DNA of 64,000 bases from a virus (IMGVR_UViG_3300025898_000005:124-64123), one strand, 5' to 3'. Counted from the stretch's first letter, positions 5,339 through 61,651 are shown. Made by a program: numbers and translations. The notes: generated from the letters alone by a model not told the origin.

Positions 5339-6561
5339 AAACGAAAATTATCCTTTACCTCTTCTACAGCGTATTGGCCTTTCATTCATCCAATACCTTA
5401 TATGTGACAGCCTTCGGAGCTACCGGCAACGGGATCACCGATGACACCAACGCCATCAATACCGCCCTGGCGGCCGCCGCCTCCCAGCAGAAAACCTTGG
5501 TCTTCCCGGCAGGTACCTACCTTTGCAACAAGGTGGATGGGTCCGGAAATATCCTTTCCTTCGCAGCTGGTGGCCTGACCAGTCCCGCGATCGTCGGCCA
5601 GAACGCCATCATAAAAACCACTAAGGATTCTGCCTGCACCCAGCTTTATATCTACGCCTTTTCGGGCTGCAGCGGACTGGCAATCAGTGGTATCTTCTTC
5701 CAGAATACCCACGGCAAGATCACGGGAATAACGGATGCCATCTTTATGACAGGGACTGGCGGCCAGTTGCTGACCAACGTATATGTCCAAAACTGCCGCT
5801 TTGAAGGATTTAGTCAGGCAGTCGCTGGGCAGGGTATTACTGGATGGTATATTCAGAATAATACTTTCGGCGCCCCCCAGGGACATGATAACGGCCAGCA
5901 AACCACTGATCCCTGCGTTGGCATCTGGCTTTTCGATAATAGTAACGGAGTCTGCCGTTCAGTCTTCATCCAACGAAACAAGGCCAGCGGATATACGGGC
6001 ACCTTTCCAATGGCCTGCAAAAGACCGCTGGATGGCTTTGTCTATGGCAGCGGCTACGGCCTTCACATCGATCATAATCAGACCGATTATTATTCCGAAG
6101 AGCATTTCATGATCAACCCCCAGACCGCGGCTACCGATTCCGTCACCAATATTTCCAATAATGAAATAAATTGCCGCCTGCCTGCGGGATCCCAGAATGA
6201 CGACAATTCCCCGCATGTCATCAACTACGGCATCCGGGCGGATGTTTCCAATGCCTATATCGGCGGCAACAACATCACCAGTTATACCTATGGCATCATG
6301 TTCCGCGGCATCGATTACCCCACCACCACTTTCACCAACCTGGAATATGATGGAAACCAGTTGTATGCTCCCACCGACACGGTGGCATATTCCATTCAAA
6401 AGGCCATTACCATCACTGGCAGCACAGGCCACCCTGTAACGGGAATAAAGGTCCACGGTACAACCACCCGGTTTATTGATGCCCAGCCCATTGAACTGAT
6501 CAATACGACCGGTGCCCAATCCTTCAGTAATAATTTCTATCCTTTCAATTTCATACAGTAA
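5335..6561 (+). CDS. Right-handed beta-helix (pectate-lyase-3-like) protein with N-terminal hydrophobic signal
   Basis: VTAFGATGNGITDDTNAINTAL...FPAGTY motif; Asn ladders; hydrophobic N-terminus. Confidence 0.8.
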   Translation: MKTKIILYLFYSVLAFHSSNTLYVTAFGATGNGITDDTNAINTALAAAASQQKTLVFPAGTYLCNKVDGSGNILSFAAGGLTSPAIVGQNAIIKTTKDSACTQLYIYAFSGCSGLAISGIFFQNTHGKITGITDAIFMTGTGGQLLTNVYVQNCRFEGFSQAVAGQGITGWYIQNNTFGAPQGHDNGQQTTDPCVGIWLFDNSNGVCRSVFIQRNKASGYTGTFPMACKRPLDGFVYGSGYGLHIDHNQTDYYSEEHFMINPQTAATDSVTNISNNEINCRLPAGSQNDDNSPHVINYGIRADVSNAYIGGNNITSYTYGIMFRGIDYPTTTFTNLEYDGNQLYAPTDTVAYSIQKAITITGSTGHPVTGIKVHGTTTRFIDAQPIELINTTGAQSFSNNFYPFNFIQ

Positions 6562-7673: not shown

Positions 7674-7997
7674 ATGAAAAAGATCATCCCGCTGCTGATC
7701 ATCGCCTGCCTGGGTGCCTGCAAACGCCCACTAACCAATCATCAGCTATTTTGGAAATATCAGGACAGCACTAATAAATATATGGCGCTGCAGATTGACA
7801 TGCAGTGTTTTGAAATCGATGCCGTCATAGCCAATAAGCGGGATGATTATTTTTATTATGATCGGATGGCAACGATGGCAGGAGAAGAAGCAACCAGATA
7901 TCAGGACAGCGTGGATAAATACTTCCAGGCTTTCGAACGAGATCAGGCGGCAACCTATCTACAACAACGCGCATTTTCTCACCAAAAACCAAAATAA
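7674..7997 (+). CDS. Predicted lipoprotein
   Basis: MKKIIPLLIIACLGA-C lipobox; DST and DSV sequons. Confidence 0.65.
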   Translation: MKKIIPLLIIACLGACKRPLTNHQLFWKYQDSTNKYMALQIDMQCFEIDAVIANKRDDYFYYDRMATMAGEEATRYQDSVDKYFQAFERDQAATYLQQRAFSHQKPK

Positions 7998-15702: not shown

Positions 15703-15706
15703 CTTT

Positions 15707-20034: not shown

Positions 20035-20538
20035 ATGAAAAAGTTTCTCGTTCTCTCTTTTTTGGTGATCGGCTTCATTGCCAGCACTTTCGCCCAGACC
20101 CGGGTGGTAAATACCGGCGTATTGACCCAGGGACAGTTCCTGGATTTCGGTGGCACCTACCCCAATGGCGGAACCCTGAATCCTTCGGATTCCCTGCAGG
20201 TATCGGATTCCATCGCGTATTTTATCCCGGTGCAGCATACGAATAATTTATCACCATACCTTACCTGGTATTGGAATAAGATCGGCGCTGGCACGGCGAC
20301 CATTACGTTGACCTTTTTGCAGTCCAATGATAACGTCAACTGGTTCGCGGTACCGAAGGGCGCCGCTCAATCTGCCTATTCCAAATCCTACACATTGTCC
20401 GCAAATACGTGGAGCAACGTATCTTTTAAACAGGATACGGCTATTTTTGAGGGGCGATATCTGAAGGTCTACTTCATTACCTCTTCCACCGCCAGCGTAA
20501 AAGGCAAACTTTTCAACCGGCTCAAAACCTCCTTTTAA
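20035..20538 (+). CDS. Signal-peptide beta-sandwich protein at the head-decoration position
   Basis: MKKFLVLSFLVIGFIASTFA|Q; LQSNDNVNW...GRYLKV; DSL, DSI, DTA sequons. Confidence 0.7.
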   Translation: MKKFLVLSFLVIGFIASTFAQTRVVNTGVLTQGQFLDFGGTYPNGGTLNPSDSLQVSDSIAYFIPVQHTNNLSPYLTWYWNKIGAGTATITLTFLQSNDNVNWFAVPKGAAQSAYSKSYTLSANTWSNVSFKQDTAIFEGRYLKVYFITSSTASVKGKLFNRLKTSF

Positions 20539-30020: not shown

Positions 30021-30956
30021 ATGGCAGATTTAATACAGGCACCCGCTGAACGAATAGTATATGATGGAATTGACAATCCCATCTATGACCAGGATCTTGT
30101 GGTGGCCACCCAGAATGCCATCAGCCTGGTCCTGGCCTTGTCGGGAGCGGATGGGGGCGATTTCTTTATCATTTCGGGTCTTTATTATGTCCCGGGCGTT
30201 CCCAATACGTACACGCCGGGCTTTTTTATATTGGGGCGCAAACTGTATGTCTGTACACAAAATTTTGTGGAAGGAAGTTATCTGGGTCCAAACGTTCAGC
30301 CTACTCAGAATGAAGGCTTTAATGATGGTACATCCAGAAATATTTATCAGTCCTATGGATCATTGATATCACCCACCCCGGACCCGACCTATTCCCCCCA
30401 GTTCGAAGGGAATATGAATCAGTACCGGATTGGGAATAAATATCTGGGGCTTTCGGTAATATCCCTGCTGGCCACGCAGGCCAGCCTGGGAAATGCTTCC
30501 ACTAAGAATGTCGGCACTACGGCCGGGACGGTCGCCGCCGGCGATGATCCCCGGATGCCTTATACAGCGGCCCAACTGGCGGCCCTGTTCGTCATGCCGC
30601 CCGAAGTAATCCTGAAGGGGGATACAAATGCCTATACACCAGCTGGGCCCAATGATCCGGTAAATAAAAATTATACGGATACCAACTTCATAAAGAAACT
30701 GGCTTCCGGAAATGCGGCCGTGGGGGATGTTCCATCTGGGGGTAAATCGGTGGCGTTGGCCTTCGGTGTTACTCTCCCGGATACTAATTATATTGTTCTG
30801 GTCAGCGTGGTATCTGCCGGCGTTCCAGGAAATGATGCCAGCCTTCATACGCCAGTTATAGTTAACAAAACAACTGCTGGATGTAGTGTTCAACTAAATG
30901 AAGGGGTCGGTACCGTGCAAAATGTTAGTTTGGATTGGATCGTGCTTTCTAAATAA
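30021..30956 (+). CDS. Proximal tail fibre / adaptor (no signal peptide)
   Basis: LGNASTKNVGTTAGTVAAGDDPR fibre motif; C-terminal H-type-lectin-like segment. Confidence 0.75.
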   Translation: MADLIQAPAERIVYDGIDNPIYDQDLVVATQNAISLVLALSGADGGDFFIISGLYYVPGVPNTYTPGFFILGRKLYVCTQNFVEGSYLGPNVQPTQNEGFNDGTSRNIYQSYGSLISPTPDPTYSPQFEGNMNQYRIGNKYLGLSVISLLATQASLGNASTKNVGTTAGTVAAGDDPRMPYTAAQLAALFVMPPEVILKGDTNAYTPAGPNDPVNKNYTDTNFIKKLASGNAAVGDVPSGGKSVALAFGVTLPDTNYIVLVSVVSAGVPGNDASLHTPVIVNKTTAGCSVQLNEGVGTVQNVSLDWIVLSK

Positions 30957-33900
30957 ATGTATATGAGAAAAGTATTATTTCTGCTGTCTCTTCTTTATGC
31001 CGGCTATGCCCAGGCACAGATCCCGCAATGGATCAATCAGCCGTATATTTTCCTTAAATGGATCAATGTCCGGGACAGCATGCGTTGTCAAATCTACTTC
31101 CAGGGAACCAATGACACCCTGGCCACCCAGGCCTATGCCCGGGGACATGGCGGGGGAGGGAGCGGGAACCCGCTGCCGGGATATGGCATAAAGATCACTG
31201 GCGGCGACACGGTGAGCATCGACACGGCCAACTACCGAAAGATGGATAGTCTGTATGTGGTGACGGATTCCACTTTCATTGTAAAGATCAATGGCCGGGT
31301 TTATGCCTATAAAATGCGCGGGAACGTCTTTTCCTTCAACGGGCGCACCGCAGCCGTGGTCCCGCAGGATAACGATTATGCAGCCTTTTATCCGAAACTG
31401 GATAGTACCTATAATGACCCGTCTTTTATTTCTCACATATCCTTCCCGAAAATAACGTCATTACCCTATACGCTGGCGGGATACAATATCACCGATGCCG
31501 TTCGAAACGCCGGCGGGGTTCGAACCTGGCAGCAGGATGTTTATGCCAACCGGCCGGCATTCGGGAACCTGGGGGCATTCTTCTATGCCACGGATTCCAA
31601 TGCCATCTACTTCGATACGGGCGCCGGTTGGACAAAGGTGACCACGGCAACCAGCGGGGGGGGAACAGATTCGGCCGTATTAGCCGGTAACCTGCTGATC
31701 AAAACGGTCAGCGGGACCGCTATTACCCTGAAAGTGGATACCAATGGCCTGAAATCTTTCATCGGAACCTTGACCGGGATCACCCAACTTTTCAGCAAAC
31801 GGGGGGCGCTGATATCTGGCACCGACACGGTGGGGATTGATAGTTCCGTGGTCATTGCCTATACCGATACGCTATCCGGGGGCAAGATCGTCACCAAAAC
31901 CTTCCTTACCAATCGGGGATACCTGACATCGGAAACGGATCCCGTGGCCACGGCAAAGACGATCACCCTGACCCAGGTTGCGAACCGTGGGGTTATTATA
32001 GCGGGAACGGCGGGGCAAACGCTGGGATCAGGCCCTGCCTGGACTATAACGGCGGATACGGCCTTTCTGGCGACAAATACTTACGTCAATCGACAAGGAT
32101 TCATAAAGGCAAACCAGACCATTACGCTATCTGGTCAGGCATCAGGATCTGGAACTACGGCGATCACGGTTGCCCTGGCGACCAATACGGTGACTTATGC
32201 CCAGTTCCAGCAGGTAGCTGCCAGTTCCCTGGTGGGGAATCCGACCGGGTCCTTGGGGAATGCCCAGGCGATCGGTATACAGGCCCCGCTGATCTTCAGC
32301 AGCAGCGTACTAAAACTGGATACCACCGTTGTCCATAGTCTGGGTTTCAACGATGGCCGATACCTGACATTTGATTCCATCCGGGTGGTGGGAGTAGGAA
32401 CCGGCGGCGTATCCATTGGATATGCACAGGGTTCGGATACCCTTAACCTTGCCCGACTGATCTCTGGGTCAAATATCACCCTGACCAAAAATTCTGACAG
32501 TTCGATCACCATAGCAGCCGCCAGCGGCTTCAGCAATCCGATGACCACTTCTCAGGATTTGATCGTTGGCGGGACTGCCGGAGCGGCCGGGCGCCTGGGG
32601 GCGGGCGCAAATGGGACTTTCCTGGGGGTTCAATCCGGCGTGGTCGGATATTATACGCCACCTGGTGCGGTCAGTTCAGTGGCACCAGCAAATGGATCAT
32701 TGATCATAAGTCCTACTTCCGGCAGCGTACTGGCATCGCTCAATCCGGCCTTTACCGATAGTTTCACCGTTATCCAGAAATTCGCCGCCGGCATGAATAT
32801 AGGGGGAACCCTAACGCTTTTAAGTACAACATCCGCCGGGTCTGCCCTGAATACCAAACTGCAGGTCCTGGTGCAGGATACCAGCGCGGGACAGGGGATT
32901 GTTTATCGTAGATCCTTCCAGGGAATGGATACTACAGGCCTTGGTAAGAACCAGGGATGGATTCCCTACTATGATACGACCTGCCATTGCTGGAAGACGG
33001 AAGCAGCGCCCTCCGGCGGGGGAGGTTCGGGGAATACCAATTCCAATGTCGGGGGCGGTTACCGGTGGGCGATTCCCGGCACCAACAATGTAAAGACGGC
33101 CACGGTTGGCATAGGCCTTAGTGCGGATAGCATTGTCACCAATACGCTAAATTTTAAGGCTGATACTTCCTACCTGGTCACACTTGCTTCCGGTCAGAAT
33201 ATTACAGGGAATAAAAACTTAGGTGGCACCCTAACGCTTTCGGGTACCGGAGGGGCATCTTCCGCTTTGAATGGAAAACTAAAAATCCTGATGGCCGACA
33301 CGACCGCACAAAATACCGTTTATACCCGATCCTTTCAGGGAATGGACACGACCAATCTGGGTAAAAATCAGGGATGGACGAATTATTATGATACCACCTG
33401 TAAGTGCTGGAAGGTGCAAGCTCCCCCTGGGTTCGCCAATCCGATGACTTCGGCTGGCGACCTGATCGTGGGCGGTTCTGCAGGTGCGCCAACCCGGGCG
33501 GCTGGCAATAATACCACCACACCCCAGGTCCTATGGGGAACCGGTACCGGGAGTGCCGCCACGGCCCCGGTATGGCACACCCTGGTAAAAGGGGATATCG
33601 GACTGGGGAATGTTGAAAATACCGCATTATCGACCTGGGCGGGATCTTCATCCCTCACTACCCTGGGAACCATTGGGGCAGGCGTATGGCAGGGATCACC
33701 GGTAACGGGTCAGTTCGGTGGTACGGGGATCAACAATAGCGGAAAGACCATCACGCTGGGCGGAAGTTTTGCTACTTCCGGGGCCTTCCCGTTGACGTTT
33801 ACCCTATCTGGCTCTACGAATGTCACGCTTCCCGTCTCTGGGACGCTGGTCAATAGTTCGGTGACGACCCTTTCTTCCTTGGCGGGAGTGGGAACGATTA

Positions 33901-34649
33901 CATCGGGAACCTGGCAGGGCGGCATTGTCGGGCCGATATTTGGGGGTACCGGGGTGAACAATGGGATCAGCACCATCACCCTGGCCGGGCCGCTGGTAAC
34001 TACCGGGGCCTTTACCACGACATTGACCGCTACCGGAACCACGGCCGTGACGCTGCCGACATCCGGTACTTTATACGGTACGCAGGCGGGATCCATTACT
34101 TCGGCCCAGTTACTGGCATCTTTGACAGATGAAACAGGAACGGGTACGGCGGTCTTTTCTGCATCTCCGGCTTTGACGGGAACACCGACCGCCCCCACGG
34201 CAGCGCCAGGGACCAATACTACCCAGATTGCCACCATGGCCGCCATTCAGGCTGCAACGGGGGCTGCCATCCCTTCCGGTGGATTAGCTGCGGGAACCTA
34301 TACACCTACTCTTATTTCCACTTCTCTTGGTGGCATAGTTACGCCTGGTGTTTTCAAATATCAAAGAGTGGGGAATGTTGTCCATTACAGCGGGCCCGTT
34401 TCAATATCCGCTGAACCTGCCACAAATACGCAATACACGGTGGATATCTCCTTACCGATAAGTTCTACTTATTCCGCAGCAACGGATTTGAACGGGGTAT
34501 GCGTAACCACCGGATCCGGAGATGCCCCCGGTTGGGCCACTGCTTTAAACAATTCTGGAACCATTGTTTCCAGAAGTCGGATGTGGTCTACCATCAACGC
34601 GGGTAATGGGGTGACCATCATAATTGAAGGAACTTATATCGTACAATAA
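30957..34649 (+). CDS. Long tail-fibre-like protein with Sec signal peptide and dense D(S/T) sequons
   Basis: MRKVLFLLSLLYAGYAQA|Q; fibre motifs VFSFNGRTAAV, NPMTTxxDLIVGG, SPALTGTPTAPTAAPGTNTTQIAT, YQRVGNVVH. Confidence 0.8.
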   Translation: MYMRKVLFLLSLLYAGYAQAQIPQWINQPYIFLKWINVRDSMRCQIYFQGTNDTLATQAYARGHGGGGSGNPLPGYGIKITGGDTVSIDTANYRKMDSLYVVTDSTFIVKINGRVYAYKMRGNVFSFNGRTAAVVPQDNDYAAFYPKLDSTYNDPSFISHISFPKITSLPYTLAGYNITDAVRNAGGVRTWQQDVYANRPAFGNLGAFFYATDSNAIYFDTGAGWTKVTTATSGGGTDSAVLAGNLLIKTVSGTAITLKVDTNGLKSFIGTLTGITQLFSKRGALISGTDTVGIDSSVVIAYTDTLSGGKIVTKTFLTNRGYLTSETDPVATAKTITLTQVANRGVIIAGTAGQTLGSGPAWTITADTAFLATNTYVNRQGFIKANQTITLSGQASGSGTTAITVALATNTVTYAQFQQVAASSLVGNPTGSLGNAQAIGIQAPLIFSSSVLKLDTTVVHSLGFNDGRYLTFDSIRVVGVGTGGVSIGYAQGSDTLNLARLISGSNITLTKNSDSSITIAAASGFSNPMTTSQDLIVGGTAGAAGRLGAGANGTFLGVQSGVVGYYTPPGAVSSVAPANGSLIISPTSGSVLASLNPAFTDSFTVIQKFAAGMNIGGTLTLLSTTSAGSALNTKLQVLVQDTSAGQGIVYRRSFQGMDTTGLGKNQGWIPYYDTTCHCWKTEAAPSGGGGSGNTNSNVGGGYRWAIPGTNNVKTATVGIGLSADSIVTNTLNFKADTSYLVTLASGQNITGNKNLGGTLTLSGTGGASSALNGKLKILMADTTAQNTVYTRSFQGMDTTNLGKNQGWTNYYDTTCKCWKVQAPPGFANPMTSAGDLIVGGSAGAPTRAAGNNTTTPQVLWGTGTGSAATAPVWHTLVKGDIGLGNVENTALSTWAGSSSLTTLGTIGAGVWQGSPVTGQFGGTGINNSGKTITLGGSFATSGAFPLTFTLSGSTNVTLPVSGTLVNSSVTTLSSLAGVGTITSGTWQGGIVGPIFGGTGVNNGISTITLAGPLVTTGAFTTTLTATGTTAVTLPTSGTLYGTQAGSITSAQLLASLTDETGTGTAVFSASPALTGTPTAPTAAPGTNTTQIATMAAIQAATGAAIPSGGLAAGTYTPTLISTSLGGIVTPGVFKYQRVGNVVHYSGPVSISAEPATNTQYTVDISLPISSTYSAATDLNGVCVTTGSGDAPGWATALNNSGTIVSRSRMWSTINAGNGVTIIIEGTYIVQ

Positions 34650-34655
34650 TAAATT

Positions 34656-35675
34656 ATGAAAAAACTGCTATTTATCCTGCTATTCCCGATTCTCACCCAG
34701 GCCCAGACCAACCAGGGTGCATTCATGTATAACTATGGCGCTGCGGTGCCGGTGATCTTCGAAAGTGGTTCGCTGGCCCCGTTCACCACCGTATCGCCAG
34801 CGGCATCCACTCCGGCAAAAACATTCACCTTTACCGCCAGCAGTTTGACCGGTTCGGTGACCGCTACGGCCGATGCCCCGATGCAGGTCGCCCCGGATGG
34901 GTCAACCTTTGCCACCACGGCCGTTTTCGGTCAAACCCTGGGTATATCTTCAGGAACCGTTTCCGTACGAATAGCAGCTAGTACAGCGGTAGGTAGTTAT
35001 TCGGGTAAAATCCGGCTTACTTCTCCCGGCGCTGCCTTCGTGGATGTTCCCTTCACCGCGACCGTCACATCCGGAGCCACCTTAACCGTGGTAAAGTTCA
35101 ATATCTGGGATGCCAGTCAAACAAATGGGAAAGTATTGCAGTCTGGGTTTAATAACTGGAATCCATCGGATCTTCTTTTTGGCCAGACCACCACTTCCGG
35201 CGCCATGACAGATACGACCGGTGCCAGCACGGCCGTGACTATGACCTTATCGGCGGGACCTGAAGCGGATGTACAGGGATTTTATACCAACAATGGTGAA
35301 CCGTATGCTGCTGCCACCACGGCACCCTATCCAGATACTTTGTTTGAAATTCCTTACCTCTTCACGACCGGCGGGGAATCCTCCGGAACGGATTCCATTA
35401 TTTTCAATGTTCCTGGCATCACACCTTCATCGGGGGGGTTTAATATTGAACTAATCAGCAGCCGGTCGACAGGGACCAGCAGACCGCAAACTTTCACTTG
35501 TAATGGCACGACGATTCCACTGGATGCCCAAAATAACCTGAATAATCTTACCGGCGGGCGGGTGCCCCTTCACTGGGATAATGTTCCTGCAGTAGGGGGG
35601 CGGATTGTGGTGGTCATGAAATATACAGCCACTTTTGTCTATGCCAATGGCGGTAAAATATCGTGGATACCTTAA
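34656..35675 (+). CDS. Secreted beta-rich protein (Ig-like plus jelly-roll-like)
   Basis: MKKLLFILLFPILTQA|Q signal peptide. Confidence 0.7.
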   Translation: MKKLLFILLFPILTQAQTNQGAFMYNYGAAVPVIFESGSLAPFTTVSPAASTPAKTFTFTASSLTGSVTATADAPMQVAPDGSTFATTAVFGQTLGISSGTVSVRIAASTAVGSYSGKIRLTSPGAAFVDVPFTATVTSGATLTVVKFNIWDASQTNGKVLQSGFNNWNPSDLLFGQTTTSGAMTDTTGASTAVTMTLSAGPEADVQGFYTNNGEPYAAATTAPYPDTLFEIPYLFTTGGESSGTDSIIFNVPGITPSSGGFNIELISSRSTGTSRPQTFTCNGTTIPLDAQNNLNNLTGGRVPLHWDNVPAVGGRIVVVMKYTATFVYANGGKISWIP

Positions 35676-35686
35676 AACTTAACTAT

Positions 35687-36166
35687 ATGAGAATCATCAC
35701 CTTTTTATTGATCCTTTTTTCTTCCATCTGCCGGGCCCAGGATGTAACCGGGGATGTAAATAAGTTGATCAATGGCCAAATAAATACATTCAGTATGGGA
35801 CTGGATAGTATTATTGTTCACACACAACTTACTTCAGGGACTACCGCTGCCTTCGTGGATACCCTTCGACTGCCCATCAATACTACCTGTTTATATTCCA
35901 TTCACTTACAGGCGGAAAATATTAACACGCTGGAAACGGCCAGGGCTTACAAAGAGATAGAAATTAAAAACATCAATGGGGTCTATTCCTTTCCGGGATC
36001 CACCGATGTGGTCGCCTATCCCGGTCAATCGGCCACGACCAGCATTTCGAAAGCAACCTGGTCCATCCTATCCAGCGGTGGGATTTATGTCATCCGGGTG
36101 GCAGGAGTGGCTGGCGTAAATATGAAATGGACCATTACCCGAACGCAAATAATAACTGCATTATGA
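35687..36166 (+). CDS. Secreted small beta-sandwich protein
   Basis: MRIITFLLILFSSICRA|Q signal peptide. Confidence 0.7.
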   Translation: MRIITFLLILFSSICRAQDVTGDVNKLINGQINTFSMGLDSIIVHTQLTSGTTAAFVDTLRLPINTTCLYSIHLQAENINTLETARAYKEIEIKNINGVYSFPGSTDVVAYPGQSATTSISKATWSILSSGGIYVIRVAGVAGVNMKWTITRTQIITAL

Positions 36167-39100
36167 AGAAACTTATTTATTTCACAATTTTGGTATTCTT
36201 AGGACTTATCGGTAAGTCCCAGACGGCTGGGACCATCATCAATGTGCCTTATACCACGGCTTCTACGCCGACCTTCCAGGCATACCTGTATCTTCCCAAT
36301 GACTACGGGACCACCGGTTCCCAGCGGTATCCGCTTTTCATATTCCTGCATGGCTCCGGGGAATCCTGCCCACCAGTGTCGAACATATACAATTCCACTA
36401 CCGCCGGGGGACCGCTCTATTTTATCGAACATGGCCTGTGGCCAACTGGCGGATTTATGAATTACCGGACCGGAGCTACTGAAAAATATATTGTTCTGGG
36501 TCCACAATCCGCCTGTAATTCCTGGTCTACTTCCGGAGATCAACTAGCGAACATCAAAACGTACATGGTGCAGAATTACCGGGTGGATAGCAATCGGATC
36601 ATCGTTTCCGGTCTTTCTTCCGGTGGTGGTGGAACGGTAGAAAATACGGCCAATCTTAGCGGGAATGAAACGACCCAGACCTTCCCTTCCCGTTATAAGA
36701 ATGCCGCCGTGATCCCCATGAGCCCCGCCACGAACAATCCCCTGCAGGCTTGGGGGGCGCAATTCGTTACGGATTCCGTTCCCTCCTGGTTCTTCGGGGA
36801 TCAAAACAATGACACCTATGGGGAATATGCCTGGAACTTCGCCCGGCGCCTACCCACCCCCAACGCGACCACCAACGGCTTCATCAATGCCATAAAATTC
36901 GGATATGCCTATTTTACCGGCAACCCGGGGACAAATGGCGTTTCCACTTTTAACACCGGCCATGGACCTTGGAATACTTACTACAATCCTACCTTCCGGG
37001 TATCCTTTACTGATTCCACCATAAAGCCGGCGGTGACTGGGACCTTCAGCATTTATGAATGGGGGCTGATGCATGTGCGCAATTCGGTCGCCGTGACCAC
37101 GCCAACGGCCAACGCTGGCAGCAATCAGTCCATCACCCAGCCGACCAGCACGGTGACGCTAACAGGATCAGGAACGGCCGGCACTGGCCATAATATCCCG
37201 ACTTCAGGCGGATATGCCTGGACCCAGGTATCTGGGCCCACTTCAACGATCACTACGCCTACGTTATCTAGCACCACCGTGACCGGCATGACAACGGCCG
37301 GGGCCTATGTCTACCAGTTGAAAGTCACCAATGAGATAGGGGCCTTCGCTACCAGTCAGGTGACAATAACGGTGATCAGCAATGCCCCGCATGCGAATGC
37401 TGGACCTGATCAAACGATCACCCTGCCCATCAGTTCCGTCACGCTTGACGGTACAGGATCTTCTGGCGGGATTACTTCCTACGCCTGGTCCCAATTGACC
37501 GGACCCAATACCGGAAATATCAATTCCGCAACGGCCGCCACCACATCGGTGACTGCCCTGATCGCCGGGGTCTATACCTTTCAATTATCGCTGAATTCCG
37601 GGGCCAGCAAGGATACGGTGCAGATCACCGTGCAGCCGGTTCAGCCGTGCGGTCCTCACAACAAGATCATTCTGCATCCTTTTTCGGACAGCACTTATTT
37701 TATCAATAACGCCGTTTCCCATACCTTCCAGGCTGGTGACACGATTGTCTTTACCCATACAGATGTATGGAAAAGTGCCGTCTTCCAGAATATGAACGGC
37801 GCCCCGGGTTGCCCTATCGTGCTGCAAAACGATTCCGGTCCCATTCCTTTTACAAGTCCTCCGAATGGTCACCGGTCCGGTAATGATTACAGTGGAATGA
37901 AATTCGCGTCCTGTTCTCATATTCACCTGCAGGGGAATGCGGATCCTACCACCAAATATGGTTTCTTCTTCCAGTATGATCCGGTCTTCGTTTATCAGAC
38001 CACGCCGGCGCTGATCATCGATGACAAGTCTACCAACGTGGAAGTTAACAATGTATCTTTCCGGAATGTGGATATTGCGATCGTCGCGGAAGTAACGGAG
38101 AATTGTGACACGACCTTCAACTGGCCCAATTGGTTCATGGATAGTATCATCATCCATGATATAAAGGTTCGACGGACCTGGAATGAAGGGTTTTACCTGG
38201 GAAATACGAGTCCCGACAATGCCCTTTATGATCACCGGCCAACCGTTTGTGGGGTAGATACTTTTTATTATAAACCTGCCAAAAATGGATATACACAGGT
38301 TTATAACATTGATATGGATAGTACCGGCCGGAGTGGTATACAGTTGGCCAATGCGATCGTCAACCCAGCCGGGGCCCGGTCGGAAATCTTCAATTGTACG
38401 GTCAAACATGCTGGATTGAATGGCGATGATGCACAAGGGTGCGGTATCGATCCGGGACTTTATACCGTGGTCCGGATTCATGACAATGTGATCACCAATA
38501 CATATACTTTTGGCGTTGGCAGTTTGGGAGCCAATGGGACCAGTACACCGCTGGAAATCTATAATAACCGGATAGACAGTGCCGGATTTTTGAGAACGTT
38601 CAATAATGCCACCACGGATTCCGTTCGTTATAATCCTGAAACGGCGCCTACCTTCCGGGATAGCCTGACCTATCCTTATCCCATTTTTGTGACCACCAGA
38701 CCGATGTCCTTTACTACCGACAGCCTGCCAGGTACGGCCATCCATGGGCTGGATAGTCTCAATTTCATCATCAAAAATAATACCTTGGGTCTTTTTAAGG
38801 CGGCGACACGGCCGGACAGTAATGTCGTTGGTAACTCTACGGCTGCCATCCAGATTGAACAGGACAGCCGAAATACCACCATTCAAAAAAATGGGAATGT
38901 GATCTGCGGGAATACATTCTTCAATGATCAGCCGGCCACAGTCTTCACCGACAATCGGCAGGGAGTGATCAATTATTCAACGAACTGCGGGAATGCTATT
39001 AAAAGACTGATAGCCAGTATTGGGGATGCCGTAGATGCCCCCGCAATTGTGGCCGATACGCTGATCCTGCCGTTGGATTCCACTTTTATCGAAGGTTATG

Positions 39101-39402
39101 CCCTGGCCGATTCTTTGAATAATATTACAAATCTCACCATCACCCAAATAGGGGGGCCATCTTGTACCATTACGCAGCGCCTGAGAATACCAACCAGCGG
39201 GATAGGGCAATCCCTTATTATTGATTGGGATATTAAAAAAATGTTGACCCCGGGAATCTATTCCTTTTCCATAATAGGATTTTCCGATGCAGGAACCACT
39301 GCCAGTACTTCCGTATCGATCACCATCCTGGGGGCCTTACCCAATCCAAAAAATTACATGCCAGTTCATAAGTATAGTAAAAAACGTATATTGGGGCACT
39401 AA
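36163..39402 (+). CDS. Secreted alpha/beta-hydrolase - PKD-like repeats - right-handed beta-helix protein
   Basis: MKKLIYFTILVFLGLIGKS|Q; YPLFIFLHGSGE and GLSSGG nucleophile elbow; two ANAGxxQxITxP PKD-type repeats; beta-helix ladders. Confidence 0.8.
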   Translation: MKKLIYFTILVFLGLIGKSQTAGTIINVPYTTASTPTFQAYLYLPNDYGTTGSQRYPLFIFLHGSGESCPPVSNIYNSTTAGGPLYFIEHGLWPTGGFMNYRTGATEKYIVLGPQSACNSWSTSGDQLANIKTYMVQNYRVDSNRIIVSGLSSGGGGTVENTANLSGNETTQTFPSRYKNAAVIPMSPATNNPLQAWGAQFVTDSVPSWFFGDQNNDTYGEYAWNFARRLPTPNATTNGFINAIKFGYAYFTGNPGTNGVSTFNTGHGPWNTYYNPTFRVSFTDSTIKPAVTGTFSIYEWGLMHVRNSVAVTTPTANAGSNQSITQPTSTVTLTGSGTAGTGHNIPTSGGYAWTQVSGPTSTITTPTLSSTTVTGMTTAGAYVYQLKVTNEIGAFATSQVTITVISNAPHANAGPDQTITLPISSVTLDGTGSSGGITSYAWSQLTGPNTGNINSATAATTSVTALIAGVYTFQLSLNSGASKDTVQITVQPVQPCGPHNKIILHPFSDSTYFINNAVSHTFQAGDTIVFTHTDVWKSAVFQNMNGAPGCPIVLQNDSGPIPFTSPPNGHRSGNDYSGMKFASCSHIHLQGNADPTTKYGFFFQYDPVFVYQTTPALIIDDKSTNVEVNNVSFRNVDIAIVAEVTENCDTTFNWPNWFMDSIIIHDIKVRRTWNEGFYLGNTSPDNALYDHRPTVCGVDTFYYKPAKNGYTQVYNIDMDSTGRSGIQLANAIVNPAGARSEIFNCTVKHAGLNGDDAQGCGIDPGLYTVVRIHDNVITNTYTFGVGSLGANGTSTPLEIYNNRIDSAGFLRTFNNATTDSVRYNPETAPTFRDSLTYPYPIFVTTRPMSFTTDSLPGTAIHGLDSLNFIIKNNTLGLFKAATRPDSNVVGNSTAAIQIEQDSRNTTIQKNGNVICGNTFFNDQPATVFTDNRQGVINYSTNCGNAIKRLIASIGDAVDAPAIVADTLILPLDSTFIEGYALADSLNNITNLTITQIGGPSCTITQRLRIPTSGIGQSLIIDWDIKKMLTPGIYSFSIIGFSDAGTTASTSVSITILGALPNPKNYMPVHKYSKKRILGH

Positions 39403-39411
39403 AATTTTTAT

Positions 39412-39729
39412 ATGAAAAAATTACTGCTATTACTTAGTTTCTTATCAATCTGCCTGCTGACATTCAGCCAGGATCACCAGGTCAACCCATTGAAAAAGGA
39501 TACGGTGAAGGGAAAGATTCCGGCTGGTAAAAAGGTGATCGCCGCCAAAAAGGATACGATTCCGCCCCTATCCATTATCCCCCGGGAAAAGGCCTACGTG
39601 CTGATGTTGTCTGAAAATGAGATCCAGCGCCTTTATTCCATTGTACGCACTTCCGGCAAACTTACCGGCACGGAAATAGAGGATTATCTCATATTGCTGG
39701 ATCAGCGAAAAAAAGAGATAAAACAATAA
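39412..39729 (+). CDS. Small secreted protein
   Basis: MKKLLLLLSFLSICLLTFS|Q; KKDTV and KKDTI sequons. Confidence 0.65.
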   Translation: MKKLLLLLSFLSICLLTFSQDHQVNPLKKDTVKGKIPAGKKVIAAKKDTIPPLSIIPREKAYVLMLSENEIQRLYSIVRTSGKLTGTEIEDYLILLDQRKKEIKQ

Positions 39730-39733
39730 ATTT

Positions 39734-39925
39734 ATGCCTGACATGACAACCCCGACAAATCATATTGATGCCCCTGGATTAGCAATGATATTCTTCGGGC
39801 AGGGCTTTAATACGCTTGCTATGATAACCCGCACCGATGTAACCTATTTTCTTGGCCTCTTTTCGACATTATTGGCAATTGCCTATTATACCCTGAAGAT
39901 GTACAAAGAATGGAAAAGCAAATAA
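39734..39925 (+). CDS. Putative holin
   Basis: 63 aa, hydrophobic segments, basic C-terminus, near the endolysin. Confidence 0.55.
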   Translation: MPDMTTPTNHIDAPGLAMIFFGQGFNTLAMITRTDVTYFLGLFSTLLAIAYYTLKMYKEWKSK

Positions 39926-39951
39926 TCTTCAACCTTTTAAAAGTTAAGTAT

Positions 39952-40359
39952 ATGAAATCAACCAAGTTATCGCTCATTTTTGCTTTGGCCATCGGGGTGT
40001 CCTTCGTGGCCATTGGACAGAACCTGAAGGACAGTGCGGGCAGTCCGCCGATCAAAGATTCCACCCAGTACGTGGCTGACAGCGTTCAGATCGCCACCCA
40101 GATGCAGCCTACCATTGTCGGTTTGCCTGTATCGCGGCCAGTTCAATCAATCTTTATCGCGGTCATTACCGCCCTGGCTACGGTCCTGGGCGCTGTTCAG
40201 TATGTCTTGAAAAAGATACCTACCCCGGTCAGTGTAAAAATTGAAGGGGTTGTGGGGAAAATATTGGATGTGGCGACCTTCTTCCAGCCGGATAGAAGTA
40301 CCAATGGCGGCGTTCATGCGGATAAACCGGATCCACTAAGTGCGCCGAAGAAGCCCTGA
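39952..40359 (+). CDS. Signal peptide plus transmembrane protein in the lysis region
   Basis: MKSTKLSLIFALAIGVSFVAIG|Q; DSA, DST, DSV before the TM helix. Confidence 0.6.
   Translation: MKSTKLSLIFALAIGVSFVAIGQNLKDSAGSPPIKDSTQYVADSVQIATQMQPTIVGLPVSRPVQSIFIAVITALATVLGAVQYVLKKIPTPVSVKIEGVVGKILDVATFFQPDRSTNGGVHADKPDPLSAPKKP

Positions 40360-42695: not shown

Positions 42696-42712
<17 letters not shown>
42317..42712 (+). CDS. Fibre adaptor (BppU-N-like) protein
   Basis: PIDIRTYAF...GDYRL; coupled to the collagen gene. Confidence 0.55.
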
Positions 42713-44480
<1,768 letters not shown>

Positions 44481-44943: not shown

Positions 44944-45996
44944 CTACGCATACCATCCTTTATCCCACAGGGTATAAAGATGATCAAAATAATGGTCATA
45001 GTGATAAGCCAGTTCGAGCATGGAAAATCTGTCGATTGCGCGATTTCTAATTTTTTCCCCTGGTTTCAGCATCCCATTTTCACACCAATGCATTGCTTGA
45101 ATGAAATCCTTAAAAGAGTGGCAGGTATATCCATCTACACCCGTTTTTATATTCTCCGAAAAGGTTCCCCACGGCGTGGCGATTACCGGCGTGCCAGATA
45201 AAAGGGCTTCCGCCATCACCCCACAAAACGGTTCAATATAGATGGATGGGCATAAAACGGCGACAGCATCCGCCAGCAGGTTGGCTTTTTGTTCTCCCGA
45301 TACCATCCCGACATATTCCCCATATCCATCGAACTGGCCAGGACCCGCCACAATTAACCGGGCCCTTATTTTTTCGCATGCCTGTTGGGCTATCCGCCAT
45401 CCTTTCCGATCAGTCAGGCGCCCCATATAAAGGAAATAGTCCCCCTTCTTTTTGGATACATGATATTGGGTATGGTCAAAGAAGTTGGGGATCACCCGGT
45501 CATAGAAGTTGCCATCGGCCCGGTCAGCGGATCCCGCCATCTGGCCATAAACGGTATGCATCCAGGCGTAGGATTCAAAGACTTTGAATTTTGCGAAGAC
45601 CCCGGCGTATCCTACCCCGAATTCCACTGCCATCAGGTAGGGCAGTTTTTCGGCCAGGACCTGCTGGCACCGGCCGGCGATCAGGCAAAGGAAGTCTTTA
45701 TCCTTCGCCCGAATGGTAATTTCTGCCCATGCTATATGATTCATGCGGACCCAATGATCCGCCTGGGGGTCGAAAGGAGCATCCAGGTATTCGGCCGGGG
45801 ACCACCGTTTATAATAGCAGGGGATGAATTCATCACATACCGCCTCATTTTCGGAGGACCCGTAAAGGAAGACCTTATGGCCCAGGTCCTTCATCATCTT
45901 ACAGAACTTTATGACTTTCTGGGTATAAGCACAGCAATTATATTCTGCCGTTGTCTGGGTATGGGGAAGCCCAACTATATGAAAAGTGTATTGCAT
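44944..45996 (-). CDS. Glycosyltransferase, GT4 (GT-B) family
   Basis: YFLYMGRL..RKG and EPFCGVMAEALLSGTPVIA (EX7E) motifs. Confidence 0.9.
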   Translation of the reverse strand: MQYTFHIVGLPHTQTTAEYNCCAYTQKVIKFCKMMKDLGHKVFLYGSSENEAVCDEFIPCYYKRWSPAEYLDAPFDPQADHWVRMNHIAWAEITIRAKDKDFLCLIAGRCQQVLAEKLPYLMAVEFGVGYAGVFAKFKVFESYAWMHTVYGQMAGSADRADGNFYDRVIPNFFDHTQYHVSKKKGDYFLYMGRLTDRKGWRIAQQACEKIRARLIVAGPGQFDGYGEYVGMVSGEQKANLLADAVAVLCPSIYIEPFCGVMAEALLSGTPVIATPWGTFSENIKTGVDGYTCHSFKDFIQAMHWCENGMLKPGEKIRNRAIDRFSMLELAYHYDHYFDHLYTLWDKGWYA

Positions 45997-60239: not shown

Positions 60240-60830
60240 ATGTACGATGACAACTACATCCATCCGTCCGCCATCATTGACCGGAATGTAAAACTGGGAT
60301 CCGGCAATCACATTGGGCCTTTTTGCGTGATAACCGGCAAAACCGTCATAGGGAATTGCAATCGCTTTGAAGGATTTTGTTCCATCGGCACGCCGCCGGA
60401 ACATCGGGAATACTGGGCCGGGAAATATGATGGCGGTGTGAAAATTGGGGATAACTGCACCATCCGGGAGTACGTCACGATCAATTCCGGGACCAAACAA
60501 GACACCATTGTCGGCGATGATGTGGTGATCCTCCGGGGCGCTCATGTAGGCCACGATGCCATCGTTTTAAGCAAAGCCACCATTTCCTGCAATGTATTGA
60601 TAGGGGGCCATGCGACAGTCGGCGCTCATGCTAATCTTGGCCTGGGCTGTATTATCCATCAAAACCAGACCATCGCCCGGGGCTGCATGATTGGGATGGG
60701 TGCCGTGGTCACGAAGAAACTGATCACCGAACCTTTTAAAACGTATGTGGGCAATCCTGCCCGCCTGCTGGGGGACAATACCAAACATCCGAATTACACC
60801 ATTTTCATGCAACAATACCCAGGCGAATGA
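60240..60830 (+). CDS. LpxA-like hexapeptide-repeat acyltransferase
   Basis: IHPSAII, IGPFCVI, IREYVTINSGT, AHVGHDA. Confidence 0.85.
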   Translation: MYDDNYIHPSAIIDRNVKLGSGNHIGPFCVITGKTVIGNCNRFEGFCSIGTPPEHREYWAGKYDGGVKIGDNCTIREYVTINSGTKQDTIVGDDVVILRGAHVGHDAIVLSKATISCNVLIGGHATVGAHANLGLGCIIHQNQTIARGCMIGMGAVVTKKLITEPFKTYVGNPARLLGDNTKHPNYTIFMQQYPGE

Positions 60831-61651
60831 GACCCCGCATAACTATATCGATGCCCTGCTATATGCGGCCCATCCGTACAGCAGCTGCGATTGAAAGCAT
60901 CCGCCGGCAGACGGTGGAGGATTTTGAAGCCTTCGTGATCGGGGACGGTTGTCCTTTCTACCGCAATACCTTGGGCGATGATCTCCGGTTCCGCTCCTTC
61001 AATACCGATGCAAATTATGGGGGGTGCGGCTATTATCAGACCAACTTTGCTATTCGGCATGCGACCGGCAAATACTTCGTCTTCCAGGGGAATGATGACC
61101 TGATCGACCCGAACCATTTCGAAAACTACCTTTCCGCCATCGAAGGGACGGACCTGGACTTCGTATGGTTTTCCCAGTACAAGGAAGCAGGCCAGGTCAA
61201 ACAGTTCAAACTAAAAAGCTGGAAGATTGGCCATTGCGCCCTGATCATCCGCACCGACTTCCTGAAGCAAATGCCGCCCCACGTTCCCGCCTATAACCAC
61301 GACTGGAACCTGATCGACAATATGATCAAAGCCGGCGCAAAGTACAAGCGGTGCGACAATAAGCCCACCTATCACTGCGATCCCTATAACTGGCGGTTCA
61401 CGGATATGGATGGGGATGCCGACAGCCGGGTACGAAAAAAGAAACACTTCCGGGAACGGATGCTGCAGAAACTGGGGGCATGCCTGGGAATCCTAATCGT
61501 AATCGGGCTGGCCCCGATCTGGATCCCGTTGAGTATTATTTTACTTTTTAAATCAATGTATTATGGGAAAGGAATGGATAATCTATATCGCCATCGTTAC
61601 ACCGATCGCGGGCGGTCTGATCTGGACACTTATAAAGAGAAAAACGGATGA
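60827..61651 (+). CDS. Glycosyltransferase, GT2 (GT-A) family, with C-terminal TM segment
   Basis: ISMPCY, SIRRQT, IGDG, ATGKYFVFQGNDD, HDW. Confidence 0.8.
   Translation: MRPRITISMPCYMRPIRTAAAIESIRRQTVEDFEAFVIGDGCPFYRNTLGDDLRFRSFNTDANYGGCGYYQTNFAIRHATGKYFVFQGNDDLIDPNHFENYLSAIEGTDLDFVWFSQYKEAGQVKQFKLKSWKIGHCALIIRTDFLKQMPPHVPAYNHDWNLIDNMIKAGAKYKRCDNKPTYHCDPYNWRFTDMDGDADSRVRKKKHFRERMLQKLGACLGILIVIGLAPIWIPLSIILLFKSMYYGKGMDNLYRHRYTDRGRSDLDTYKEKNG

Follow-up and report, generated by a model that had tools for sequence, protein, structure and literature searches.

Conserved leaders and O-glycosylation sequons suggest periplasmic maturation of fibre-like late proteins in a contractile-tailed phage of Bacteroidota

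Tailed phages are thought to be built in the cytoplasm. In the 64-kb contractile-tailed phage of Bacteroidota analyzed here, however, a set of fibre-like and enzyme-like late gene products very probably matures in the periplasm instead. Judged from sequence, export of the leader-bearing proteins is strongly supported, and their periplasmic glycosylation, read from sequons, is well supported, because the leaders are conserved and the sequon excess is limited to leader-bearing proteins. An earlier note on this DNA had described five genes, starting at 30957, 34656, 35687, 36163 and 39412, with a basic start, a hydrophobic core and an A/Q or S/Q cleavage site. All five open reading frames were found at these positions in the window (the whole stretch of 64,000 nucleotides; Table 1), and their N-termini have this layout (slash, predicted cut): B, MYMRKVLFLLSLLYAGYAQA/QIPQ; C, MKKLLFILLFPILTQA/QTNQ; D, MRIITFLLILFSSICRA/QDVT; E, MKKLIYFTILVFLGLIGKS/QTAG; and F, MKKLLLLLSFLSICLLTFS/QDHQ. 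The four fibre motifs quoted from B, including VFSFNGRT, were also located in its translation. Beyond this span, two further genes combine a leader with Gln at +1, namely 20035 (TFA/Q) and 39952 (AIG/Q), while 7674 encodes a lipoprotein with the lipobox LGAC and 5335 a protein with a leader-like start lacking the Gln.

Table 1. Leader-bearing genes, their neighbours and other genes of interest in the window.
Label	Product	Coordinates	Strand	Features
	408-aa pectate-lyase/tailspike-like protein	5335..6561	+	PF12708; tail-spike PHROGs; leader-like N-terminus, no Gln at +1
	107-aa predicted lipoprotein	7674..7997	+	MKKIIPLLIIACLGAC...
	167-aa protein	20035..20538	+	leader 1-20, Gln21; between capsid/protease gene and sheath gene
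A	311-aa leaderless fibre-like protein	30021..30956	+	last gene of conserved baseplate module; proposed docking site
B	1230-aa fibre-like protein	30957..34649	+	leader 1-20 (30957-31016), Gln21 at +1; conserved N-terminal ~430 aa, variable C-terminal part
C	339-aa protein	34656..35675	+	leader 1-16, Gln17; putative Ig-like N-terminal domain and beta-sandwich
D	159-aa beta-rich protein	35687..36166	+	leader 1-17, Gln18
E	1079-aa enzyme-like protein	36163..39402	+	leader 1-19, Gln20; N-terminal esterase-like domain, two PKD, long C-terminal part, basic tail
F	105-aa protein	39412..39729	+	leader or signal-anchor 1-19, Gln20; first gene of probable lysis region
G	63-aa protein	39734..39925	+	two moderately hydrophobic stretches; holin-like from size and position alone
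H	135-aa protein	39952..40359	+	leader 1-22, Gln23; one transmembrane segment at 64-82
	Collagen-like fibre	42696..44480
	GT1	44944..45996	-
	Hexapeptide acyltransferase	60240..60830
	GT2	60827..61651

Leaders were called with a purpose-built heuristic, not a trained predictor, which required a basic n-region, an uncharged hydrophobic core of 8-16 residues and small residues at -3/-1. In a set of 85 greedily called reading frames it found nine leader-like N-termini, and seven of these have Gln at +1. The comparison set, 329 overlapping and mostly spurious frames, yielded 16, of which a single one had Gln at this position (Fisher p 8e-5 for the Gln class and 0.07 for any leader). With a stricter variant, 34656 was lost owing to a Pro in its hydrophobic core. 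Of the seven Gln-type leaders, six fall within eight consecutive genes (30957-40359), a clustering matched by a fraction of 7.5e-5 of 200,000 random placements.

The leaders are also retained in relatives of the phage. A syntenic IMG/VR genome (L001), with 31-56% identity in the tail and baseplate proteins, carries five leader-bearing genes at the equivalent place after the baseplate, all of them with Gln at +1. The N-terminal part of B is 50% identical to its counterpart there and the N-terminal 145 residues of C share 33% identity with the gene found in the corresponding position, while the positions of D and F are occupied by non-homologous leader-bearing genes (106 aa at the F position). 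In the B family, the leader and Gln were present in 10 of 10 close homologues and in 21 of 21 further 50%-identity clusters with its N-terminal domain, so that this domain was always found behind a leader and Gln (31/31 clusters); among C homologues the figure was seven of nine. The leaders are, on this sequence record, under selection, because they are kept where the adjoining sequences have diverged or been replaced.

The Bacteroidota O-glycosylation motif, D-[ST]-[AILMTV], was counted in each protein and compared with residue shuffles that keep composition. The nine leader-bearing proteins contain 55 sequons versus 13.4 expected (z 11.9), or about fourfold, whereas 61 other reading frames have 35 versus 37.0 expected; five control motifs showed no excess. 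Most of these sites are in B (20 vs 4.7 expected, z 7.5) and E (16 vs 4.1), and the remaining products have fewer: C (3 vs 1.2), D (3 vs 0.7), F (2 vs 0.3), H (3 vs 0.4), 20035 (3 vs 0.4, z 4.2), 7674 (2 vs 0.3) and 5335 (3 vs 1.2). In H, the three sequons are all placed after the leader and ahead of the membrane segment, in the stretch predicted to face the periplasm. Enrichment holds for each of the 31 B-family clusters (z 3.4-16.4) and for the B and E homologues in L001 (21 vs 6.0 and 17 vs 2.7 expected, respectively), but for none of 14 leaderless fibre matches. Six sequon columns of B, at 40, 53, 97, 104, 304 and 367, are conserved, being present in 9-11 of the 11 homologues; their third residue differs between homologues but stays within the allowed set. 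In Bacteroidota, the motif D-S/T-A/L/V/I/M/T is enriched in non-cytoplasmic proteins and glycans are transferred in the periplasm (PMC12871550). The available text of that review makes no mention of phages, and the proteins described here are putative O-glycoproteins, judged by motif; the link between the sequon and leader-bearing phage proteins, drawn from sequence, is new here.

Several features give B a fibre-like character. Its residues 99-181 match a tail fibre that is annotated in Leeuwenhoekiella phage Arctus_1 and lacks a leader. Among its other matches are proteins bearing PF13884, PF03406 and collagen domains as well as one named 'tail fiber' by its source, and its inner modules turn up again in 122 further representative proteins. 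When 11 homologues are aligned, conservation extends over the first ~430 residues, beyond which no alignment is possible. Since B carries a leader, as do all 31 relatives with its N-terminal domain, its sequence marks it as something other than an ordinary tail fibre. When 50,697 phage records were searched by tblastn, B gave one partial match, and C and E gave no match. The preceding gene product, A, has no leader, no sequons and no match in Pfam or PHROG; it shares 35% identity with its positional counterpart in L001 and, over its C-terminal 70 residues, 30% identity with the same-position gene of Flavobacterium phage fF4. With a complete leaderless A and a collagen-like fibre both encoded, B is not needed as a receptor-binding protein.

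Spacing, composition and expression signals were examined with morons in mind, accessory genes that have a promoter and terminator of their own. The genes of the block are separated by gaps of 0-10 bases, and its GC content is 0.50-0.56 compared to ~0.49 overall. In a scan for sigma-70 type sites, as distinct from Bacteroidota promoters, promoter-like and terminator-like sites did not exceed shuffles. At D and E in-frame starts are also present upstream. In smaller cultured relatives of the baseplate module (pippi8-1 and fF4) the A-type gene is followed almost directly by lysis genes, with no leader-bearing fibre genes; therefore, B to E are an insertion in a place that often carries accessory genes. 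At the other end of the block, the small leader-bearing genes F and H sit beside holin-like G and the product of 41071, a candidate lysin assigned to phrog_3000, a PHROG of unknown function. This position would suit a spanin or another lysis protein. Neither F nor H has a family match, nor do G and the 20035 product, and F may be a lysis protein instead of a member of the fibre set.

Domain assignments for the remaining proteins are mostly leads. For C, an Atlas feature and structures gave an Ig-like N-terminal part and lectin-like or beta-sandwich look-alikes, all below the bars of the tools. For D, the Atlas model is similar to portions of viral proteins (TM 0.69-0.79), which is a lead; a separate predicted fold was of poor quality, and a structure search with it gave no match. 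E contains PF22352 twice and has weak esterase matches. Bacterial T9SS cargo enzymes containing esterase, PKD and beta-helix parts (from Chitinophaga, Puia, Fulvivirga and others) align with 40-65% of E at 30-45% identity, and some of them are equally sequon-rich, such as a Puia protein with 28 sequons versus 6.1 expected. These bacterial homologues have the sorting domain PF18962, whereas E and its relatives of ~1000-1450 aa lack it and end in a very basic tail. As kin of bacterial secreted enzymes, E could act free. T9SS sorting domains (PF18962, TIGR04183 and type B) were absent from B, C, D, E and F at Pfam E 0.01 and NCBIfam E 1. T9SS cargo status was considered for B to F and rejected, as no C-terminal sorting domain was found.

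Cultured Cellulophaga phages offer a parallel. In phi10:1 (gp091-gp094) and phi18:3 (gp085-gp087), each product has a leader and Gln as in the window, and gp095 also has a leader; these runs of three to five consecutive leader genes end the tail module directly before lysis-type genes. Their products are annotated as pectate lyase, tail fibre or structural, and gp091-gp094 and gp085-gp087 as virion proteins 'based on experimental MS/MS proteomics analysis'. In contrast, nine other MS-annotated phi18:3 proteins that we translated are leaderless, as are phi10:1 gp088 and gp090. Across several genera of Cellulophaga phages the leader and the first 118 residues form a conserved module before differing C-terminal parts. 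The MS detection could reflect co-purifying material, and it does not reveal the N-terminus of the detected proteins. The likeness is one of arrangement: the Cellulophaga proteins have no homology to the window proteins (no match at E 0.01) and, unlike them, no sequon excess (0-3 vs 1.4-4.2 expected). They also belong to a podovirus and a siphovirus of Flavobacteriia hosts, whereas the present phage is a myovirus. Our literature search found no mention of leaders on these Cellulophaga proteins, nor any description of an export-then-attach route for tailed-phage parts, and we know of no tailed phage that adds exported parts after lysis. Lambda lom, T5 llp and cor are leader-bearing accessory genes beside receptor-binding or fibre genes. 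They encode small outer-membrane proteins or lipoproteins, often with their own expression signals, whereas the exported proteins of the window are large and fibre- or enzyme-like, and their genes are packed tightly within the late operon. Gln at +1 marks Sec/signal peptidase I substrates of Bacteroidota that follow the Q-rule (PMC5837995, PMC10653852). Seven window genes share this leader layout, but here the predicted substrates are late proteins of a phage, including one composed of tail-fibre modules. Q-rule leader genes of Porphyromonas gingivalis prophages have been read as use of host secretion and as membrane modifiers (PMC10367356). As far as the available text of that study goes, the set comprises five genes from temperate phages, all of unknown function, and includes neither a fibre-like protein nor a sequon analysis (PMC10367356).

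We propose that the host would handle B, C, D and E, together with the products of 39412, 39952 and 20035, like its own secreted proteins, and that these would be made late with the baseplate genes. Sec would export them, signal peptidase I would cut before the Gln, and the host would cyclise this residue to pyroglutamate according to the Q-rule. In the periplasm, the general O-glycosylation system of the host would then add glycans at D-[ST]-[AILMTV]; cleavage, pyroglutamate formation and actual glycosylation are all steps that we infer. Without a known signal for crossing the outer membrane, the proteins would stay in the periplasm up to the opening of the inner membrane by the holin. Fibre-like B would then attach to finished particles by means of its conserved N-terminal domain, perhaps along with its neighbours, as glycan-coated appendages. 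The earlier note had likewise proposed that fibre subunits are exported, matured and joined to the particle. Its export part is upheld by the conservation of leaders and Gln and by the sequon enrichment, while joining of the particle rests on the fibre-like modules, the late-operon position and the Cellulophaga analogy. We consider attachment to the virion, as a step by itself, slightly favoured, and the account as a whole, from export through the Q-rule and glycosylation to attachment after holin action, to have an even chance of being the best explanation.

Other readings share much of this evidence. B to E may be exported and glycosylated but never bound to particles, being freed at lysis as stable proteins (through a pyroglutamate N-terminus, glycans and possibly disulfides) that degrade or bind polysaccharide of neighbours or debris and so aid the progeny. 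An esterase-like E with PKD domains, homologous to T9SS cargo enzymes yet devoid of the sorting domain, would suit this role, as would the lead to an Ig-like and lectin-like C, the cysteines of the mature proteins (six in B and 12 in E) and the leaderless fibre candidates already in the phage. Such proteins have no need, however, for a B N-terminal domain as conserved as the baseplate proteins before a variable C-terminal part, and virion preparations of the cultured Cellulophaga phages contained their leader-bearing proteins; we regard this reading as unlikely, though the strongest of the competitors. Less probable still is the alternative of the earlier note, that the surface of the infected cell is remodelled. 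In the form considered here, the exported proteins would act in the periplasm or on the envelope of that cell and alter surface polysaccharide or receptors, blocking adsorption of other phages, or of progeny on debris. The phage does encode GT1, GT2 and a hexapeptide acyltransferase, a periplasmic esterase could modify polysaccharide in transit, lambda lom and T5 llp set a precedent of leader-bearing accessory genes by fibre genes, and the P. gingivalis phage proteins were read as membrane modifiers (PMC10367356). Against this, B to E lack both a T9SS sorting domain and a lipid anchor and thus have no known way to the cell surface; their genes are packed without gaps against baseplate genes and so are probably late, when exclusion is of little use; no integrase was found among the proteins scanned, a subset of the reading frames; and a fibre of 1000-1900 aa with shuffled receptor-binding-type ends would be an odd tool for the purpose.

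The textbook route, requiring no new step, would have the N-terminal stretch serve not for export, or only for a side fraction, but perhaps as an assembly or membrane-tethering helix, with the fibres joining the particle in the cytoplasm. It is compatible with leader calls from a heuristic in place of a trained predictor and with Cellulophaga MS data that do not tell which N-terminus was present. We nevertheless judge it improbable, since neither the Gln at +1 throughout the B family nor a fourfold sequon excess limited to leader-bearing proteins makes sense unless these proteins reach the periplasm, and the sequons of H all face the predicted periplasmic side. That the pattern is an artefact of chance hydrophobic N-termini or wrong starts, with a sequon excess due to fibre composition, is very improbable. 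Spurious frames are flagged by the heuristic too (16/329), and upstream starts exist at 35687 and 36163, but just one of the 329 has Gln at +1 and the leaders are kept across homologues. The shuffles preserve composition, fibres that contain the same modules but lack a leader are not enriched, and small non-fibre leader proteins are enriched as well.

Returning to export followed by attachment, we extend it to the host group only tentatively and with rather less than even confidence. Tailed phages of Bacteroidota may possess a second assembly compartment, in which receptor-binding fibres or depolymerase-type appendages, exported, pyroglutamate-trimmed and O-glycan-coated, would join particles completed beforehand in the cytoplasm only at the holin breach. 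In this phage the route would serve the cassette B-E, perhaps with the 20035 product, in addition to a conventional leaderless fibre; the glycosyltransferases and acyltransferase of the phage may retailor the glycan, and the leaderless 30021 product may capture the glycosylated parts.

Translation of the five consecutive ORFs starting at 30957, 34656, 35687, 36163 and 39412 bore out what the earlier note had claimed of their N-termini: each begins with a Sec-type signal peptide-like leader followed by Gln at +1, as in the Q-rule of Bacteroidota. The products are designated here B (1230 aa, fibre-like), C (339 aa), D (159 aa), E (1079 aa, enzyme-like, 36163-39402) and F (105 aa), and the leaderless fibre-like protein encoded ahead of B is referred to as the 30021 product. 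Leaders were called by a heuristic rule of our own rather than by a trained predictor. It requires 8-16 uncharged residues as the core (mean hydropathy at least 1.9), a basic residue preceding them, and small residues at -1 and -3; one Pro was allowed in the core, as occurs in C. By this rule 9 of the 85 greedily called ORFs are positive, seven of them with Gln at +1, compared with 16 of 329 overlapping, mostly spurious ORFs, one with Gln. When called ORFs are compared with spurious ones, Fisher's test gives p 8e-5 for Gln-type leaders and no better than 0.07 for leaders of every kind, so that Gln is the signal-bearing feature. Gln-type leaders beyond the five belong to 20035 and 39952, and 7674 has a lipoprotein-type N-terminus. 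Six of the seven Gln-type leaders fall within eight consecutive genes, with random placements doing equally well at a frequency of 7.5e-5. The 167-aa product of 20035, whose gene separates the capsid/protease and sheath genes within the head-tail module, had no family matches and could serve, if exported, as a decoration or accessory protein. The pectate-lyase/tailspike-like protein 5335, encoded far from the tail module and directly downstream of a HerA/Zot-like ATPase gene, has a leader-like N-terminus without Gln.

Features of the window, with O-glycosylation sequons found and expected where counted
Feature	Position	Strand	Sequons (found vs expected)	z	Basis
HerA/Zot-like ATPase gene	3542-5338
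Pectate-lyase/tailspike-like protein	5335-6561		3 vs 1.2	1.8
Protein 7674	7674		2 vs 0.3	3.6
Large terminase	9286				PHROG match
Portal	11061				PHROG match
Minus-strand gene	16684-17007	-
Minus-strand gene	17004-17219	-
Capsid/protease-type protein	17300				PHROG match
Protein 20035	20035-20538		3 vs 0.4	4.2
Tail sheath	21199				PHROG match
Tape measure	23621				PHROG match
Baseplate hub	26090				PHROG match
B	30957		20 vs 4.7	7.5
C	34656		3 vs 1.2	1.8
D	35687		3 vs 0.7	3.1
E	36163		16 vs 4.1	5.9
F	39412		2 vs 0.3	3.7
Protein 39952	39952		3 vs 0.4	4.2
Candidate lysin	41071-41706				phrog_3000
Shadow ORF	42227-43387	opposite to collagen-repeat gene
Collagen-repeat protein	42696-44480				Pfam
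GT1 glycosyltransferase	44944-45996	-
Hexapeptide-repeat acyltransferase	60240-60830	+
GT2 glycosyltransferase	60827-61651	+

The window comprises the whole of a 64,123-base virus record minus 123 bases, with nearly all genes on the plus strand, and its PHROG matches, including tail sheath, tape measure and baseplate hub, identify a contractile-tailed phage. The evidence points to a Bacteroidota host, which is favoured by the hub-related proteins of cultured phages (19 records at 24-28% identity, only from Flavobacterium and Winogradskyella phages), by the named bacterial homologues of E (mostly Chitinophaga, Puia, Fulvivirga and other Bacteroidota) and by A-rich regions upstream of genes, where no Shine-Dalgarno motif was seen by eye. 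No tRNA was found in the window, no integrase among 20 of its proteins scanned with Pfam, and no megablast match between 24.9 kb of it and phage records; a metagenome scan returned partial relatives only. A profile search of genome contigs with the B alignment gave 12 pattern matches, none confirmed, so that it yielded neither a prophage copy nor a direct assignment of the host. Two minus-strand genes, one of which resembles an XRE-type helix-turn-helix protein when read by eye, break the plus-strand structural run directly ahead of the capsid gene. The two glycosyltransferases and the acyltransferase could change the host surface polysaccharide or the O-glycan placed on exported phage proteins.

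The syntenic IMG/VR relative L001 aligns with the window from sheath to fibre, at identities of 44% for both sheath and hub, 31-56% for other tail and baseplate genes and 35% for the 30021-type gene. The latter is followed by five genes, all starting with a leader and Gln. Gene 1 is a homologue of B, gene 2 of C and gene 4 of E, with partial alignments at 50%, 33% and 26% identity respectively, whereas genes 3 and 5 have no detectable homology to D and F; the export signal thus survives gene replacement. In a search of 5.8 billion proteins, all ten sharing the N-terminal part of B have a leader with Gln, as do all 21 further clusters matched from residue 1 when a profile of B residues 1-440 was run against 1.84 billion representatives. 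The other 122 matches listed share inner modules only, with a leader-like start present in 39 and absent in 83. Among the clusters found, the N-terminal domain of B never occurs without a leader. Leader and Gln were also found in seven of nine homologues of C, the remaining two appearing truncated or different, and in at least 22 of 28 N-termini, read by eye, of E relatives without a sorting domain, where most of the exceptions seem N-terminally shortened. A phage-like metagenome contig of 22,248 bases, which encodes a ClpP-type protease and a glycosyltransferase, has leader and Gln at the start of six ORFs; the product of one is 2320 aa long, with 43 sequons where 16.7 are expected, and that of another, of 1082 aa, matches tail-fibre PHROGs.

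Bacteroidota are described as O-glycosylating non-cytoplasmic proteins at the sequon D-S/T-A/L/V/I/M/T, a motif enriched in such proteins of the phylum, with transfer in the periplasm and sites usually near-fully occupied (PMC12871550). We counted sequons in all called ORFs against 300 shuffles of each protein's own residues. The nine leader proteins together contain 55 versus 13.4 expected (z 11.9), compared with 35 versus 37.0 in 61 other ORFs, a set that includes some doubtful small ORFs and excludes minus-strand ORFs judged spurious, save three. Enrichment is weak in C and 5335, as their z values indicate, and only one further ORF, of 88 residues with a single site, exceeds z 2.5. None of the control motifs (reversed; Glu or Asn for Asp; a non-allowed third residue; Ala/Gly for Ser/Thr) is enriched in the leader set. 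All three sequons of 39952 lie between its leader and its single membrane segment.

The excess recurs in ten close homologues of B (15-53 sequons vs 4-9 expected, z 5.5-16.4) and in the 21 further clusters of its family (z 3.4-14.4). For 14 leaderless fibre matches z was never above 1.3, and six of the 122 listed inner-module matches exceed 3, one of them with a leader behind a mis-called start. In L001, 21 sequons versus 6.0 expected were counted for the B homologue and 17 versus 2.7 for that of E; its eight leaderless structural proteins show no excess except the tape measure (4 vs 1.6). The B sequons at positions 40, 53, 97, 104, 304 and 367 are conserved in 9-11 of 11 sequences with a third residue that varies within the allowed set (M/I/V, L/M/A, L/V/T/A), as would be expected if selection acted on the sequon rather than on a fold. 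We conclude from these motif counts that the leader proteins are probably exposed to the periplasm and selected for glycosylation there. The excess also provides a cheap computational marker for exported phage proteins of this kind.

In phage pippi8-1 and Flavobacterium phage fF4, two small cultured phages with a related baseplate module, at most a few genes separate the 30021 equivalent from the lysis genes or from the end of the genome. Their fibre-position genes are leaderless, like the fibre of Leeuwenhoekiella phage Arctus_1. By this comparison B to E are a clade-specific insertion, flanked on one side by a conventional fibre-like gene that lacks a leader and on the other by the lysis genes. 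Intergenic gaps from B to E are 0-10 bases. Promoter-like and terminator-like sites at the cassette were not above shuffles in a scan that does not model Bacteroidota promoters, nor were Bacteroidota-type promoter motifs above chance. In fF4 a lipoprotein-type gene (8987-9490) adjoins the baseplate hub gene downstream, and the last gene of pippi8-1 (15606-16016), after the endolysin, encodes a leader ending in SS before the Q; exported small proteins hence also occur in these two cultured phages, but not on their fibre genes.

B consists of modules common to many phage fibres. Over residues 99-181 it matches an Arctus_1 protein that is annotated as a tail fibre and has no leader, and other matches bear S74 chaperone, phage-fibre or collagen domains. 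The first ~430 residues are conserved and the remainder is shuffled among homologues, a pattern that marks B as a putative receptor-binding protein. A PDB sequence search with B gave no matches, and an AlphaFold2 model of residues 1-440 (29-row alignment) was unusable, with pLDDT 50 and pTM 0.19. The 30021 and 30957 genes share a frame, with only one TAA between them and the ATG immediately after it (30954-30959); read-through or fusion was rejected and the arrangement considered coincidental, since the L001 genes lie in different frames and stop-codon use is ordinary. Likeness of the 30021 C-terminal domain to H-type lectins was supported by no tool and is not claimed. Downstream of the lysis region, a leaderless 594-aa protein with five Pfam collagen stretches and a globular C-terminal part is a candidate for a second conventional fibre; a long shadow ORF lies opposite its gene.

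E contains two PKD domains and an esterase-like N-terminal domain, by weak matches far under curated cut-offs, and a PDB sequence search likewise gave esterase and PKD matches. Its relatives split into two sets, one of 900-1450 aa that lacks a sorting domain and one of longer bacterial proteins with the T9SS domain PF18962. The ratio of found to expected sequons is 2.50 in 14 proteins and 2.12 in another 14 of the former set, versus 1.10 over 22 of the latter, which are very mixed (from 0 vs 14 expected to 28 vs 6.1, in Puia). Where the bacterial proteins have the T9SS domain, 23 of 28 sorting-domain-free relatives have a basic tail, with at least four Lys/Arg and at most one acidic residue in the last 20, in some cases directly preceded by a CxC motif. 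This tail could be a docking or retention peptide. Neither a T9SS domain nor a lipobox was found in B to F, so that by known routes these proteins would remain periplasmic.

The remaining leader proteins gave few matches. C has only weak Ig-like and beta-sandwich look-alikes, all under search thresholds, and a single chance-level match in a PDB sequence search. D is a small beta protein whose Atlas model resembles parts of viral proteins at TM 0.69-0.79, which we regard as a lead; its single-sequence fold reached pLDDT 53.5, and a BFVD search gave no matches at E 0.001 and TM of at most 0.40. Pfam, PHROGs and NCBIfam returned nothing for the 30021 product, B, C, D and F apart from a glycerate kinase entry of NCBIfam that F matched far under the cut-off. 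The small membrane or exported proteins 39412, 39734 and 39952 precede 41071, whose 211-aa product has a function-unknown family as its sole PHROG match and no Pfam or PDB matches. A His...Ser-x-Gly-Cys stretch noticed in it by eye presumably recalls L,D-transpeptidase-type active sites, and the protein is a lysin candidate. These genes are probably the lysis region, so F may be a lysis gene rather than a member of the fibre set.

A parallel exists in cultured Cellulophaga phages. In phi18:3, gp085 ('virion structural protein'), gp086 ('structural protein') and gp087 ('tail protein'), encoded a few genes ahead of the endolysin, are annotated in RefSeq 'based on experimental MS/MS proteomics analysis'; all three have a leader with Gln, in contrast to none of nine other translated MS-annotated proteins. 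Homologues of gp086 (25 records from cultured Cellulophaga and Maribacter phages) keep the leader and first 118 residues at 82-83% identity before differing C-terminal parts. In the siphovirus phi10:1, leader, Gln and MS annotation coincide on gp091-gp094, including a 'pectate lyase' (gp093) and a 'tail fiber protein' (gp094); gp095 also has a leader but no MS annotation, and small proteins of membrane type come after it. The layout is that of the window, and these proteins are experimentally present in virion preparations, which is not proof of attachment. However, they have neither sequence similarity to the window proteins nor a sequon excess.

Taken together, export and glycosylation of the leader proteins are very probable on the evidence of N-termini and motifs. 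The leader with Gln and the sequon excess are two independent marks of export; use of the N-terminus inside the cytoplasm is quite improbable, and an artefact hardly credible. As to the fate of the exported proteins, we favour, at somewhat better than even chances, that at least B would attach to particles once the inner membrane is breached, since its N-terminal domain is conserved at the level of baseplate proteins and it undergoes shuffling of the receptor-binding type; late co-expression and the Cellulophaga parallel argue in the same direction. That the proteins are merely released free by lysis is unlikely for the set, E being the one that this would fit best. Remodelling of the envelope or exclusion would suit the GT1, GT2 and acyltransferase genes of the phage, but the proteins have no known route to the cell surface, and we consider it improbable.

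Assembly of tailed phages is taught as purely cytoplasmic. Our literature searches found no description of export signals on tailed-phage fibres or of O-glycosylation of Bacteroidota phage proteins. The nearest paper concerns P. gingivalis phages, in which five function-unknown Q-rule proteins are interpreted as membrane modifiers (PMC10367356), and absence of a signal peptide has been counted in favour of DGR targets being of phage origin (PMC6199706), an argument that suggests a prevailing assumption of phage proteins without signal peptides. The window adds a contractile-tailed case, the leaderless fibre alongside, an E that has lost the T9SS domain, and a family, at least 31 clusters strong, whose members invariably combine leader, Gln and sequons. 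A direct experimental system is available in the cultured Cellulophaga phages. Should fibres and tailspike-like enzymes indeed travel through the periplasm and acquire host glycans, fibres produced recombinantly in E. coli would be without their natural modifications, and annotation pipelines that count a signal peptide against a structural role would mislabel receptor-binding proteins across the phages of a phylum. Bacteroidota phages, gut and environmental ones included, would then depend on the secretion and glycosylation machinery of the host for their host range, stability and immune visibility.
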